Sequence record: OV876900 | Strand: one strand, 5' to 3' | DNA length: 64,000 bases | Source: Escherichia phage UGKSEcP2 | Shown here: one piece after another, positions 14,131 to 48,286 of the stretch | Layout: every line of letters begins with the position of its first letter | Numbering within the stretch: position 1 is the first letter of the stretch | Translations under genes and position numbers: made by a program | The notes under the pieces: model-generated | The model's database searches: none | The model's input: only the letters and a program-made list of their open reading frames with translations | Told to the model about the DNA's origin: nothing

Positions 14131-14163
14131 AAGGGACCTTCGGGTCCCTTTAGTTGTTTTTAT
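14131..14163 (+). terminator. rho-independent terminator after gene 23
   Basis: gggacc-ttcg-ggtccc hairpin followed by T-rich tract. Confidence 0.75.
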
Positions 14164-15484: not shown

Positions 15485-15513
15485 AACAAAGGGACCGAAA
15501 GGTCCCTTTTTAT
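15485..15513. terminator. bidirectional terminator between gene 24 and rnlB
   Basis: gggacc-gaaa-ggtccc hairpin flanked by A-run and T-run. Confidence 0.7.
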
Positions 15514-19555: not shown

Positions 19556-21067
19556 ATGACTGACATTAAAGTACATTTTTATGATTTTAGTCACGTGAGA
19601 ATTGATTGTGAAGAAAGTACATTTCATGAACTCCGTGATTTCTTTAGCTTTGAAGCTGATGGGTATCGTTTTAATCCGAAGTACAAATATGGTCACTGGG
19701 ATGGACGAATTCGTCTTTTAGATTATAATCGCCTTCTTCCATTCGGTTTAGTCGGGCAAATTAAAAAGTTCTGTGATAACTTTGGCTATAAAGTCTGGAT
19801 TGACCCGCAAATTAACGAAAAAGAAGAATTATCAAGAAAAGATTTTGATGAATGGCTTTCTAAATTAGAAATCTATTCAGGAAATAAAAGAATTGAACCG
19901 CATTGGTATCAAAAAGATGCAGTGTTCGAAGGATTAGTTAATCGTCGTAGAATTCTTAATCTTCCAACATCCGCAGGTAAATCTTTAATTCAAGCTTTGC
20001 TTGCTCGGTATTATTTGGAAAATTATGAAGGCAAAATTCTTATCATTGTTCCAACAACTGCTCTGACAACTCAAATGGCTGATGACTTTGTTGACTATCG
20101 TTTATTCAGTCATGCAATGATAAAGAAAATCGGCGGTGGAGCATCAAAAGATGATAAATATAAAAATGATGCACCAGTCGTTGTTGGTACATGGCAAACT
20201 GTAGTAAAACAACCAAAAGAATGGTTCTCACAGTTTGGAATGATGATGAATGATGAATGTCATCTTGCTACAGGAAAAAGTATTTCATCTATCATATCAG
20301 GTTTAAATAACTGTATGTTTAAATTTGGTTTGTCTGGTTCATTGCGCGATGGCAAAGCTAATATCATGCAGTATGTTGGAATGTTCGGTGAAATATTTAA
20401 GCCAGTAACGACCTCTAAATTAATGGAAGATGGACAAGTAACTGAGTTAAAAATTAATAGTATTTTTCTTCGCTATCCCGATGAGTTCACTACTAAATTA
20501 AAGGGAAAAACTTACCAAGAAGAAATAAAAATTATTACTGGGCTCAGTAAAAGAAATAAATGGATCGCTAAATTAGCTATTAAGCTTGCGCAAAAAGATG
20601 AAAATGCTTTTGTCATGTTTAAACACGTATCGCACGGTAAAGCTATTTTCGATTTAATTAAAAATGAATACGATAAAGTTTATTACGTATCAGGGGAAGT
20701 TGATACCGAAACCCGCAATGTAATGAAAACCTTAGCTGAAAACGGTAAAGGAATAATTATAGTAGCTAGTTATGGTGTATTTTCTACTGGTATTTCAGTT
20801 AAAAATCTGCATCACGTTGTTTTAGCACACGGTGTTAAATCTAAAATTATTGTATTGCAAACAATAGGTCGCGTATTACGTAAGCATGGTTCTAAAACAA
20901 TCGCAACAGTCTGGGACCTCATAGATGATTGCGGTGTTAAGCCAAAATCTGCTAATACGAAAAAGAAATACGTTCATTTGAACTATCTTTTAAAACACGG
21001 CATTGATCGTATTCAGCGCTACGCAGATGAAAAATTTAATTACGTAATGAAAACAGTTAATTTATAA
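19556..21067 (+). CDS. uvsW: UvsW RNA-DNA / DNA helicase
   Basis: 503 aa; helicase motifs (NLPTSAGKS Walker A, DECH box); matches recalled T4 UvsW. Confidence 0.93.
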   Translation: MTDIKVHFYDFSHVRIDCEESTFHELRDFFSFEADGYRFNPKYKYGHWDGRIRLLDYNRLLPFGLVGQIKKFCDNFGYKVWIDPQINEKEELSRKDFDEWLSKLEIYSGNKRIEPHWYQKDAVFEGLVNRRRILNLPTSAGKSLIQALLARYYLENYEGKILIIVPTTALTTQMADDFVDYRLFSHAMIKKIGGGASKDDKYKNDAPVVVGTWQTVVKQPKEWFSQFGMMMNDECHLATGKSISSIISGLNNCMFKFGLSGSLRDGKANIMQYVGMFGEIFKPVTTSKLMEDGQVTELKINSIFLRYPDEFTTKLKGKTYQEEIKIITGLSKRNKWIAKLAIKLAQKDENAFVMFKHVSHGKAIFDLIKNEYDKVYYVSGEVDTETRNVMKTLAENGKGIIIVASYGVFSTGISVKNLHHVVLAHGVKSKIIVLQTIGRVLRKHGSKTIATVWDLIDDCGVKPKSANTKKKYVHLNYLLKHGIDRIQRYADEKFNYVMKTVNL

Positions 21068-21092
21068 GGGCTTCGGCCCTTTGGAGAAAAAG

Positions 21093-22278: not shown

Positions 22279-22677
22279 TTATACTCTGTTACTGGAAGCC
22301 AGTTGTAGTTTTATCTGCTCAATATCATCAGGGTTATCGATGACTGAAAAGCGTATTTCTACTATCAGAGTATAATCATCATAAACCGGTATTACATTAA
22401 CTGCTAATTTATCAATACGTGGCTCGTAGTTTCTTACTGCGCTTTCAATGTTACGCTCAACAGTATCAGCAGTAAGAGGAGTCATATTCTCAAAAAGCTG
22501 ATCAGATAAATCGCATCCAAATTCTGGGTCAAATGGCCTTGACCCTTTCCTGGTTGTAATAATTCCTAAAAGGCTATTTTTAATTGACCTTAATCCAAGA
22601 GATCTTGAAACATCTTTGTCCCAATCCATTTTCATTTCTGGGTCAATGTCAGAATAAAGCTTATTAATATTTGCCAT
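22279..22677 (-). CDS. 25: baseplate wedge protein gp25
   Basis: 132 aa, T4 gp25 length; coupled to gene 26 stop. Confidence 0.92.
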   Translation of the reverse strand: MANINKLYSDIDPEMKMDWDKDVSRSLGLRSIKNSLLGIITTRKGSRPFDPEFGCDLSDQLFENMTPLTADTVERNIESAVRNYEPRIDKLAVNVIPVYDDYTLIVEIRFSVIDNPDDIEQIKLQLASSNRV

Positions 22678-23303
22678 TACAATAGCTCAAAGAATTCTTT
22701 GAGTCCTCTTATTACATGAGCGTGAGTTTTTCCACACTCTGGACACTTAATTGGAACAGCCAAATAAACAGTAGGCTTTAAAAGCATATCTTTTATAGCT
22801 ACAATATCTGGCTCTGTGATGATAGAATATAAATCTTCCAGTTCTTTTTCATTTAAGTCTTCAACTGGAATGCTTTCACCGTTAGCATGAATCGTTTCTA
22901 TGCATGATACTATCATGTGGGCTATATTTTTATCATCAAAAATTTTAGGGTAATGGAACTTAATTTTAATGTCACCCAGTGTATACCAGAGGTCTTCTGG
23001 TGCATCTATTTGTGTATGTAATAGATTTATATGGGTTGGTATTTCAGTTCCACAGGTGCACTTCCAGGAGTTTTCATGATTAACTTCTCCAAGAGAATGC
23101 GCCCATAAATGAATCAGCAGTAGTTCTGATTCTTGACGGTTTAAATCTTTTGCATTTGTGCATTCTTTGATTAGCTTTTTAACGATCTCTTCTACTGAAC
23201 CGTTCTTTTTAGCAGTAATAAGCTCTAGATATTCTTTAAGAGTAAATGCGCGACAGTTGATTATTTTAGAACCAACTCTCACATCAAATTTGTATTCATA
23301 CAT
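22677..23303 (-). CDS. 26: baseplate hub protein gp26
   Basis: 208 aa, T4 gp26 length; divergent from gene 51. Confidence 0.9.
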
Positions 23304-29595: not shown

Positions 29596-29625
29596 ATGGG
29601 GACCGAAAGGTCCCCATATTTTTAT
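29596..29625. terminator. bidirectional terminator between gene 54 and the alt region
   Basis: ggggacc-gaaa-ggtcccc followed by tatttttattt. Confidence 0.7.
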
Positions 29626-34158: not shown

Positions 34159-34179
34159 AAATTAAAGGCCCGAAGGCCT

Positions 34180-34368
34180 TTAATAATCTATTGGTAAGAG
34201 AGTACGATATATTTCAAACTTTGGACCTTTTTCATAGGCATCAAATGTTTCTGTGAATTTATTATAAGCATATGCATCTATAAATTCAATCATAATTTGT
34301 GATACAGAAGTAGAAACATCTCCACCTTCTTTTTGAGCCACGACAATTGTTTCTAAGTAAGCTTTCAT
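34180..34368 (-). CDS. hypothetical protein, 62 aa
   Basis: ATG overlaps ligase stop (ATGA); stop lies inside a UUCG hairpin. Confidence 0.5.
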   Translation of the reverse strand: MKAYLETIVVAQKEGGDVSTSVSQIMIEFIDAYAYNKFTETFDAYEKGPKFEIYRTLLPIDY

Positions 34369-37597: not shown

Positions 37598-37885
37598 TTA
37601 GAACCTCATCTGAAAACCGTGCGATTTAACACTACCGCCGCCAATATCAGAAATATTAATTTCACGCGCAATTGAAGGGTCAATGTCAATTTCACGATTG
37701 AGTTTAGTGATAGCTAAAGTATCGCGGCCATTTACAGTACGGAACTCTAAAGGGCAGACTACATTAACATAGTTTTTAATCGATTCACTGGTAGGTTGCA
37801 AATGAGCAGGAAGGTCTTTAGGCGCCTTAGAGAAAACCACTTCACAGAAATTTTTGCGGGTGTCAAAATAAGTAGTCATAAACAT
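37598..37885 (-). CDS. hypothetical protein, 95 aa
   Basis: ATG ORF with GAGGA upstream. Confidence 0.55.
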   Translation of the reverse strand: MFMTTYFDTRKNFCEVVFSKAPKDLPAHLQPTSESIKNYVNVVCPLEFRTVNGRDTLAITKLNREIDIDPSIAREINISDIGGGSVKSHGFQMRF

Positions 37886-37926
37886 AGTATTTTCCTCAGT
37901 AAGGGGCCGAAGCCCCTCATTTTATT

Positions 37927-38770: not shown

Positions 38771-38798
38771 AAATAAAAAAGGACTCCCGAAGGAGTCC
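38771..38798 (-). terminator. terminator downstream of small basic protein gene
   Basis: ggactcc-cgaa-ggagtcc hairpin followed by U6 on minus strand. Confidence 0.65.
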
Positions 38799-38803
38799 TC
38801 AAC

Positions 38804-45492: not shown

Positions 45493-47080
<1,588 letters not shown>

Positions 47081-47107
47081 AATAAAATGGGCCTTGCGGC
47101 CCACTCC
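47081..47107 (-). promoter_or_regulatory. structured translation initiation region of denA: hairpin between Shine-Dalgarno and AUG
   Basis: mRNA uaaGGAGu-GGGCCGCAAGGCCC-auuuuauu-AUG; the hairpin would shorten a 23-nt SD-AUG spacing to about 9 nt. Confidence 0.5.
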
Positions 47108-48286
47108 TTAAAAATATTTTTTAAAACTCATCATAACTTTATCATCAACATCATTATCAATCTGTGCTACAAGATAAGATGACAGTTCTACTTCTTGTGG
47201 CGCGGATTGAACATTATCAGAATTAAGATATTCACGAATCCAAGGATACGGATGTTTAACCGGAGCATCGGTAATTGGGCATGGAAGACCACACTGTTTC
47301 ATACGAGATACAGTTAAGTAATCAATAAAGTTCCACATGCTATTTGTATTTAATCCAGGAACATCGCCATCTTTAAATAAATGAACTGCCCAGTCTTTTT
47401 CTTGACGGTTAACTTCCATGAAAATATCAACTGCTTCTTGTTCACACTCTTGGGCGATTTTAACCCATTCATCACCATCAGTGCCAAGTTGAAGTTGACG
47501 AATAATATATTGGGTGCCTTTAAGGTGAAGCTGCTCATCACGTGCAATGAACTTCATAATCTTGGCATTACCTTCCATGATTTCCATGTTCTTATGGAAG
47601 TTAAAGGTACATGCGAAAGATACATAAAAACGAATAGCTTCCAATGCGTTGATTACATGCAGACAAAGGTAAAGAGAACGCATTAGTTCGTATTTGCATT
47701 CTTCTACATGCATAAGGCTATTTGAATATGCGTCCAAATCATATTCATTCTCTGAAAAACACCTAAAAATTTCTTTTGCGTTTTCCCATTCACGAGTTTT
47801 CTCAATAACATCATCATAATAACGACCAATAGATTCAGCACGTTTCATGATAGCTTTATCTAATACAATCTCATCAAATACCTTTGACGGATCAGTATAA
47901 AGATTTCGCATGATATGAGTATATGAACGACTGTGAATAGTTTCGCTAAAAGTCCATGTAGCAACCCATGTATCAAGGCTTGGATCTGAAATTAATGACA
48001 TAAGTACAGCAGACGGTGCACGACCCTGAATGCTATCCAAAAGTGATTGATACTTCAGGTTATTAGTAAAAATATCTTGCTGATACTGGGGAAGCTTGTT
48101 AAATTGTGCAGCATCCATCATCAAGTTTACTTCTTCAGGACGCCAGAAAAATGACAACTGCTTTTCGGTTAAATCTTCAAAAACTTTATGACGTTGAATA
48201 TCATAACGCGCAATACCAAGACCTGAACCGAAGAACATAGGTTCTTTTAAAACATCAACTGGATTTGTATTAAAAACTGTGCTCAT
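47108..48286 (-). CDS. nrdB: ribonucleotide reductase small subunit
   Basis: 392 aa continuous ORF (no intron); di-iron ligand regions. Confidence 0.95.
   Translation of the reverse strand: MSTVFNTNPVDVLKEPMFFGSGLGIARYDIQRHKVFEDLTEKQLSFFWRPEEVNLMMDAAQFNKLPQYQQDIFTNNLKYQSLLDSIQGRAPSAVLMSLISDPSLDTWVATWTFSETIHSRSYTHIMRNLYTDPSKVFDEIVLDKAIMKRAESIGRYYDDVIEKTREWENAKEIFRCFSENEYDLDAYSNSLMHVEECKYELMRSLYLCLHVINALEAIRFYVSFACTFNFHKNMEIMEGNAKIMKFIARDEQLHLKGTQYIIRQLQLGTDGDEWVKIAQECEQEAVDIFMEVNRQEKDWAVHLFKDGDVPGLNTNSMWNFIDYLTVSRMKQCGLPCPITDAPVKHPYPWIREYLNSDNVQSAPQEVELSSYLVAQIDNDVDDKVMMSFKKYF

Follow-up and report, generated by a model that had tools for sequence, protein, structure and literature searches.

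Genes 38 and 25 of bacteriophage T4 are the two natural cases usually cited for accommodation, by the 30S ribosomal subunit, of a stable helix between a Shine-Dalgarno (SD) motif and a start codon. The split initiation region of gene 38 is reportedly cited to Gold (1988), and the gene 25 site is said to have been studied by Nivinskas et al. (1999) and by Malys and Nivinskas (2009). In gene 38 the SD lies 22 nucleotides (nt) from the AUG and is drawn near it by a hairpin between the two (PMC3014915, PMC7297116), with a reported effective spacing of 5 nt, and for gene 25 experiments show that the split arrangement enhances initiation (PMC3014915, PMC7297116). Reviews from 2010 and 2020 name these two genes alone as split sites (PMC3014915, PMC7297116). 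Here, a stretch of 64,000 nt from Escherichia phage UGKSEcP2 (sequence record OV876900), called the window throughout, was analysed around positions 47081-47107. These 27 nt constitute the whole intergenic spacer between nrdB, encoding the small subunit of ribonucleotide reductase, and denA, encoding endonuclease II (EndoII), and they probably make up a third split translation-initiation region of T4-type phages, with a terminator-like hairpin as its core.

On the minus strand, to which all coordinates of this junction refer, the sequence reads AAAAAATATTTT TAA GGAG T GGGCC GCAA GGCCC ATTTTATT ATG AAA GAA. The nrdB stop codon TAA (47110-47108) is overlapped by an SD-like AAGGAG (47104-47109; UAAGGAG in the RNA), which is followed by a hairpin, GGGCC-GCAA-GGCCC (47089-47102), with a GC stem of 5 base pairs (bp; 5' arm GGGCC at 47102-47098, 3' arm GGCCC at 47093-47089) and a GNRA tetraloop (GCAA, 47097-47094). 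A U-rich tail resembling a terminator U-tract, AUUUUAUU (47081-47088; read as ATTTTATT in the junction string above), then leads to the denA ATG (47080-47078). An earlier note on this DNA had claimed that AAGGAG is the only good SD upstream of this ATG, that it lies 23 nt away, and that a perfect 14-nt hairpin lies between them and on closure would bring the SD to about 9 nt from the AUG. The coordinates and the hairpin are as claimed: subtracting the 14 nt leaves 9 nt, or 7 nt if U47103 also pairs with A47088, and with that pair counted the hairpin begins 5 nt past the nrdB stop (UGGGCC-GCAA-GGCCCA, then UUUUAUU). The predicted stability of the isolated hairpin was -10.0 kcal/mol, and -11.6 kcal/mol with the U-A pair; in an 81-nt context the fold was more stable than 199 of 200 shuffles (z = -2.84). 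Duplex energies with the 16S anti-SD sequence were -8.8 kcal/mol for the AAGGAG segment versus +2.8 kcal/mol for the tail, and AAGGAG was the only anti-SD complement 5' of the ATG. The site thus has an SD more than about 15 nt from its start codon, no alternative SD, a stable stem-loop leaving an effective spacing within about 5-11 nt and, as described below, covariation in the stem.

The closest counterpart is the gene 25 site, which was recovered by a scan in the same window, at the gene 26/25 junction (22677-22714, minus strand; TAATAAGAGGA-CTCAAAG-AATT-CTTTGAG-CTATTGTA-ATG), and which is a validated split site (PMC3014915). With the hairpins in parentheses, the two sites read TAA-TAA-GAGG-A-(CUCAAAG-AAUU-CUUUGAG)-CUAUUGUA-AUG and UAA-GGAG-U-(GGGCC-GCAA-GGCCC)-AUUUUAUU-AUG for gene 25 and denA, respectively. 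Each site has an SD that overlaps the stop codon of the preceding gene (TAATAAGAGG in gene 25, TAAGGAG in denA), then 1 nt, a hairpin whose loop is 4 nt long, an SD-free tail of 8 nt and the AUG. The raw spacing is 27 nt in gene 25 and 23 nt in denA, and the effective spacing about 9-11 and 7-9 nt, respectively. Both layouts are conserved in T-even phages and absent from more distant relatives. The stems differ, that of gene 25 being AU-rich (7 bp, -6.4 kcal/mol, with a terminator score d of -36, see below) and that of denA rich in GC, capped by a GNRA or UUCG tetraloop and followed by a U-tract (d about +40). The evidence differs as well: reporter, mutational and dimethyl sulfate (DMS) data back the gene 25 site, whereas the denA site is known from sequence comparison. 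The earlier note's statement that structured spacers are documented in T4 holds for genes 38 and 25 (PMC3014915); gene 38 did not turn up in the window.

GC-rich tetraloop hairpins are a selected feature of this genome, since 17 were observed in the window versus 2.4 +/- 1.3 in simulations preserving dinucleotide frequencies (about seven-fold). Tuerk et al. (1988) are said to have described hairpins with C(UUCG)G or GNRA tetraloops in T4 intercistronic regions. When all 2479 ATGs in the window were scanned for the order SD, hairpin, 4-11 nt and ATG without a nearby SD, six matched, and just two of these open reading frames of at least 100 codons, namely denA and gene 25. An ordinary SD lies 3' of the hairpin, within tails of 11-30 nt, at five further places in the window where a hairpin precedes a gene (ATGs at 1234 and 21093 on the plus strand and at 37885, 34130 and 54171 on the minus strand). 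Given the enrichment of hairpins, the recovery of denA and gene 25 alone among long open reading frames (ORFs), and the ordinary SDs at the five other junctions, the denA layout is more than chance. It also sets denA apart from the other tetraloop hairpins in the window, which precede an ordinary SD, whereas the denA AUG stands 7-8 nt past the stem and has its only SD on the 5' side. GC-rich hairpins with 4-nt loops, many of them UUCG or GNRA and often just past gene ends, were seen at 1205-1222, 14131-14150, 15488-15509, 21066-21081 and 29596-29617 on the plus strand and at 34161-34184, 37902-37917 and 38780-38799 on the minus strand.

Corresponding nrdB-denA junctions were gathered from 17 phage loci in GenBank and 36 loci in IMG/VR, yielding 26 distinct sequences from about ten Tevenvirinae genera (Tequatro-, Mosig-, Dhaka-, Gelderland-, Winkler-, Gapriver-, Jiaoda-, Karam- and Roskildevirus, and unclassified contigs), with DenA identities to the window of about 60% to 100%. 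All 26 show the same succession of TAA, AAGG(A) or a near variant, 0-3 nt, a GC stem of 4-7 bp, a tetraloop, a tail of 6-10 nt and ATG. The AAGG(A)-type motif stands just past the stop in nearly all of them, three having AGAG/GAGAGG instead. Tequatrovirus has the loop GCAA (once GUAA), and almost all other junctions have UUCG, the exceptions there being one UUUG, one 5-nt UUCGG and one 5-nt CUUGA; exchange of UUCG and GNRA tetraloops is also known from ribosomal RNA helices. The stems vary in a compensated manner (GGGCC/GGCCC, GGGAC/GUCCC, GGGGC/GCCCC, GGGAGAC/GUCUCCC, AGGGC/GCCCU, CAGGGC/GCCCUG and GAGGGC/GCCCUC). In an alignment of 24 sequences, 95.6% of the cells were paired, 22 cells were altered on both sides and four of the six pairs showed double changes, a score that none of 500 shuffles matched; with slid partners as controls, pairing dropped to 19-70%. 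Conservation in relatives, which the earlier note had proposed as a check on the hairpin, was therefore borne out.

Spacing was conserved along with the helix. In 24 of the 26 junctions the intergenic length was 26-28 nt; it varied modulo 3, which marks the spacer as non-coding. Counted from the GG of the SD, the AUG was 24-25 nt away in 22 junctions and 24-29 nt away in all, and 8-11 nt away in 23 of them when the hairpin was subtracted. Anti-SD pairing ranged from -3.9 to -9.3 kcal/mol 5' of the hairpin and was -0.1 kcal/mol or weaker in the tail of every junction. Outside this set, Krischvirus E26 has another gene upstream, and its hairpin is followed by a 27-nt tail holding an ordinary SD, GAGGAAAGGA; one IMG/VR contig (L042; IMGVR_UViG_2974786931_000001, near position 601) has neither hairpin nor SD, the nrdB TGA overlapping the denA ATG (ATGA); and in Aeromonas and Slopekvirus relatives the nrdB-denA junctions are overlapping or near-adjacent and lack the hairpin. 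Where the SD is upstream the tail is thus short and SD-free, and where it is downstream the tail is long, as seen from the Krischvirus junction with its long tail and ordinary SD and from L042, which lacks both elements; a spacer role of the helix would lead one to expect this. In Winklervirus (Serratia phage X20, locus L006, spacer before position 401), a mini-ORF of 10 codons starts from an out-of-frame ATG at the base of the hairpin, and its TGA overlaps the denA ATG (CAATGA), an arrangement not conserved elsewhere.

The reading of the spacer depends on where denA begins. The T4 record AF158101.6 (1817-2251 in locus L001) starts denA at a GTG and gives a protein of 144 amino acids (aa), and most records use the ATG, giving 136 aa. 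In the window the ORF list likewise contains the in-frame GTG (47102-47104). Were this the true start, the hairpin would be coding; it gives the longest ORF, and Dhakavirus (ATG) and phage 92A1 (GTG) likewise have in-frame starts at -24. However, no SD is spaced for it, since AAGGAG overlaps the GTG itself, and among 22 junction types an in-frame start at -24 was present in three (Tequatrovirus GTG, Dhakavirus ATG, 92A1 GTG), an out-of-frame ATG in three and neither in 16. The spacer length varies modulo 3, its substitutions follow RNA pairing and not codons, and the N-terminus M-K/N-x-I/F-A encoded from the ATG is kept in relatives; the EndoII construct crystallised in PDB 2WSH consists of a His tag followed by MKEI. 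A start at GTG 47104 is scarcely credible on this evidence. Because the GTG lacks an SD, is rarely in frame in relatives and lies in a spacer whose changes follow pairing, the GTG is unlikely to be real and ATG 47080 appears to be the start, and the 144-aa GenBank annotation of T4 is probably an error. The earlier note had called the GTG an unlikely start lying inside the hairpin. The first part stands; as to the second, the GTG lies only partly within the hairpin, sharing its first G with the end of the SD and its last G with the beginning of the stem, while its T can pair with A47088. A normally spaced SD for an alternative in-frame start, which that note had named as contrary evidence, was not found at the GTG.

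Some automatic annotations of ribosome-binding sites (RBSs) also appear to be wrong. In phage Ge15 (PP359696, locus L002) an RBS was placed at 627-629, on an AGG spanning the loop and the 3' arm (47092-47094 in the window), within a terminator annotated at 618-640. This would agree with an ordinary start at which the hairpin is melted and the AAGG of loop and 3' arm (47095-47092), at an acceptable 11 nt before the AUG, acts as a conventional weak SD. Yet the GG of this AAGG is buried in a stem of -10 kcal/mol, inside which the Ge15-type AGG also sits, and the motif exists only with the GCAA/GUAA loop of Tequatrovirus; in other genera the loop UUCG is followed by G or C, the AGG is absent and no SD occurs there. 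We regard initiation from a melted hairpin as very improbable.

Two features had been overlooked in the earlier note: the overlap of the SD with the nrdB stop, which brings in translational coupling as an alternative, and the terminator-like character of the element. The hairpin and the UUUUAUU that follows, placed right after nrdB, have the sequence features of a Rho-independent terminator, with an approximate d'Aubenton-Carafa score d of about +40 (nT = 4.77), compared with about +48 for the best terminator-like hairpin elsewhere in the window and -36 for the gene 25 hairpin, all computed with modern energy parameters so that absolute values are rough. Seven of 60 listed phage records annotate a terminator under the stretch, and both of those inspected put it on the nrdB-denA hairpin (in ATK47 by means of ARNold). 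The element resembles T4 intercistronic tetraloop hairpins and the mobE terminator in its short GC stem, extra-stable tetraloop and U-rich tail right after a stop codon, and the comparable one in mobE stops 30-50% of transcripts in vivo (PMC2790892). Among the junction types, d was above 0 in 17 of 22 and at or below 0 in Mosigvirus and in the loci L033, L035, L047 and L048. In L047 and L048 the tail reads G/AUAAAGCU, and the hairpin and the upstream SD-like motif are still kept, as in Mosigvirus. What is invariant is thus the SD, the helix and their spacing, with a varying U-tract, and the retention of hairpin and SD-like motif despite a poor U-tract speaks for a function of the helix beyond termination.

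A terminator at this position would bear directly on denA. No promoter was seen between the hairpin and the AUG, where the 7-8 nt leave no room, and a search for a MotA box with a -10 element in the 3' part of nrdB found no middle-promoter-like site for a separate denA transcript, its only nearby match lying after denA; with 35 matches versus 25 expected, the pattern hardly exceeds chance and is weak evidence in both directions. As stem and AUG are separated by 7-8 nt and nothing promoter-like turned up in the 3' part of nrdB, denA would be translatable only from read-through transcripts. In published omics data, nrdB RNA is classed as early and denA RNA as middle, and the DenA protein is detected.

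The reading we favour, with a probability of roughly 0.55, is that the junction carries a conserved intercistronic tetraloop hairpin with a dual role, as a leaky terminator and as the structured spacer of a split initiation region. The GC stem, GNRA loop and UUUUAUU would act as a leaky Rho-independent terminator and as a stabiliser of the 3' end of the nrdB messenger RNA (mRNA); terminated RNAs would end just before the denA AUG, and denA would be expressed from read-through RNA alone. On the read-through mRNA, the 30S subunit would pair with UAAGGAG, and the closed helix would reduce the effective distance between the SD and the denA AUG to 7-9 nt, as experiments showed for genes 25 and 38. 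Ribosomes ending at the nrdB UAA would sit on the SD, and reinitiation may add to the yield, while synthesis of a toxic nuclease would be held low by termination and by weak, optional pairing between GGAG and the U-tract. From the anatomy and its conservation we infer that transcripts terminate at the site and that denA translation needs the hairpin; translation of EndoII would then depend on RNA folding, as the earlier note had supposed. The stricter form, in which one and the same hairpin ends nrdB transcription and is required on the read-through RNA to bridge the stop-embedded SD to the AUG, is put forward tentatively and with some doubt. If true, ribosomes finishing nrdB would be handed over the helix to denA, and termination and folding would set the dose of a toxic nuclease across all Tevenvirinae.

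A number of observations weigh against the dual role, the first of them from folding. ViennaRNA lengthens the T4-type stem by pairing GGAGU with AUUUU, at -15.6 kcal/mol versus -11.6 kcal/mol for the 6-bp stem, and the SD bases are predicted to be mainly paired (probability of being unpaired about 0.2, per base 0.01-0.34 in the window). In this folding model the extension could make the hairpin inhibitory, or the site weak or partly inhibitory, rather than enabling. An extended helix, GGAGU-GGGCC...GGCCC-AUUUU, would then hide the SD and limit EndoII, and ribosomes finishing nrdB would have to melt it. Mean predicted accessibility of the SD is low in many relatives, and low expression of a nuclease acting on host DNA is plausible. 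On the other hand, the extension is weak, being made of G-U and A-U pairs, and its register is not conserved (the flanks in Mosig-, Dhaka- and Winklervirus cannot pair in register), accessibility in relatives varies from 0.04 to 0.88, and an anti-SD duplex of about -9 kcal/mol outcompetes an extension worth about 4 kcal/mol. In the same folding model the SD of the validated gene 25 site is likewise predicted to be partly paired, yet the hairpin there enhances translation (PMC3014915). A purely inhibitory hairpin is accordingly judged improbable. The minimum-energy fold also contained an outer AU-rich helix between the denA AUG and the 3' codons of nrdB, which was set aside as its upstream partner is not conserved in relatives.

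Other such observations concern termination and the role of the upstream motif. A promoter and terminator scan of the window did not list the hairpin, by our reading because the scan runs the stem through G-U pairs into the U-tract. The literature search found no T4 3'-end mapping study and no 3'-end data for the nrdB-denA site, nor any experiment on denA translation. The conserved GG after the stop is the sole evidence for the upstream motif serving as the denA SD, and a ribosome at the UAA must melt the 5' arm, so that reinitiation could contribute or suffice. In L042, moreover, denA can evidently be expressed with neither SD nor hairpin, which favours coupling as a sufficient mechanism.

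These points lead to the possibility that the hairpin is a terminator or stability element only, and that denA is translated by coupling to nrdB, by SD-independent entry on the AU-rich, unstructured tail, or by both, without any bridging by the helix. The strong terminator-like score and the terminators annotated in other records agree with it, as do the AU-rich tail and surroundings. Ribosomes that terminate on nrdB are already positioned at the SD, which overlaps the stop, and the relatives with ATGA or near-overlapping junctions (L042, Aeromonas and Slopekvirus) do without a hairpin. The junction in the window shares with such coupling junctions that denA directly follows nrdB and that the SD overlaps the stop, and L042 is an overlapping variant; it differs from them in the 27 nt and the stable hairpin between stop and start. 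That distance is not typical of termination-reinitiation coupling, although the SD does overlap the stop, and 27 nt with a hairpin of -10 kcal/mol is long for simple reinitiation. Furthermore, AAGG(A) is kept directly 5' of the hairpin in essentially every junction, while the adjoining codons and the tails diverge; hairpin and motif outlast the loss of the U-tract in L047, L048 and Mosigvirus; and the validated site of gene 25, at which the hairpin is not terminator-like (d = -36), has the identical geometry. A hairpin without any bridging function is thus considered unlikely, though far from implausible, and the dual role remains the preferred reading.

In the full-text literature search the denA split site was undescribed, with the limit that older primary papers (Tseng 1990, Miller 2003, Tuerk 1988, Malys and Nivinskas 2009) may mention it or an nrdB terminator. 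It would therefore be a new, or at least not widely recorded, split site, distinguished by a spacer helix that is also terminator-like. A third case, phylogenetically broad and supported by covariation, would strengthen the principle that the 30S subunit tolerates a helix between SD and start codon. If the dual role is true, terminator hairpins would be reusable as spacers within RBSs, which bears on gene calling and on the prediction of RBS strength in compact phage genomes, and the layout suggests how T-even phages may hold a potentially toxic nuclease at low dose.

Other functions were considered for the same nucleotides. A strong site for RegB (GGAGRAYARAA, unpaired) is not present, the sequence being GGAGUGGGCCG with a GC stem rather than an A-rich context on its 3' side, and RegB cleavage as a conserved function was rejected because GGAG is replaced by GGAC, GGAA or GGUA in other genera. 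Bypassing of the gene 60 type, in which a stop codon is followed by a tetraloop hairpin and a matching landing codon, was suggested by a UUU before the stop and a UUU in the tail and was likewise set aside, as the last nrdB codon varies (UUU, UUC, CUC, CUA, UUA or UUG) without matching codons in the tail. No Rfam family scored above its gathering threshold; the best match, L20_leader (25.9 bits versus 58.7; 47073-47199, minus strand, E = 0.012), covers the 3' end of nrdB and the hairpin and is regarded as chance, and all others had E > 1. The AU-rich start region AUUUUAUUAUGAAAG (47070-47090, minus strand) looks like the RegA operator-like sequences AAAAUUAUGUAC and AAAUUAUGAUU quoted in PMC3014915, and repression of denA by RegA is conceivable.

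The window is a Tequatrovirus (T4-like) genome; by megablast, a 761-nt stretch around the nrdB-denA junction shares 97.6% identity with T4 and as much as 99.6% with other T-even isolates. The genes follow in the order nrdB, denA, rnlA on the minus strand. nrdB (47108-48286) was identified from the ORF list and from megablast matches to T4-like phages with nrdB annotation, and its last codons before the TAA are AAA AAA TAT TTT. T4 nrdB is interrupted by a group I intron carrying I-TevIII; here the gene is an uninterrupted ORF of 392 aa, without an intron. denA (46670-47080, ORF list) encodes a GIY-YIG endonuclease. Right after its stop codon, the sequence TGCTTCCACATGGAGTGTGGTACTAT (46644-46669, minus strand) resembles a middle promoter with a MotA box and a -10 element ahead of rnlA. 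The rnlA ATG (46617) is preceded by the SD AAGAGGA, the ORF lister extending the gene to a GTG at 46653; with the MotA-like site ahead of it, rnlA would not depend on read-through of the nrdB hairpin.

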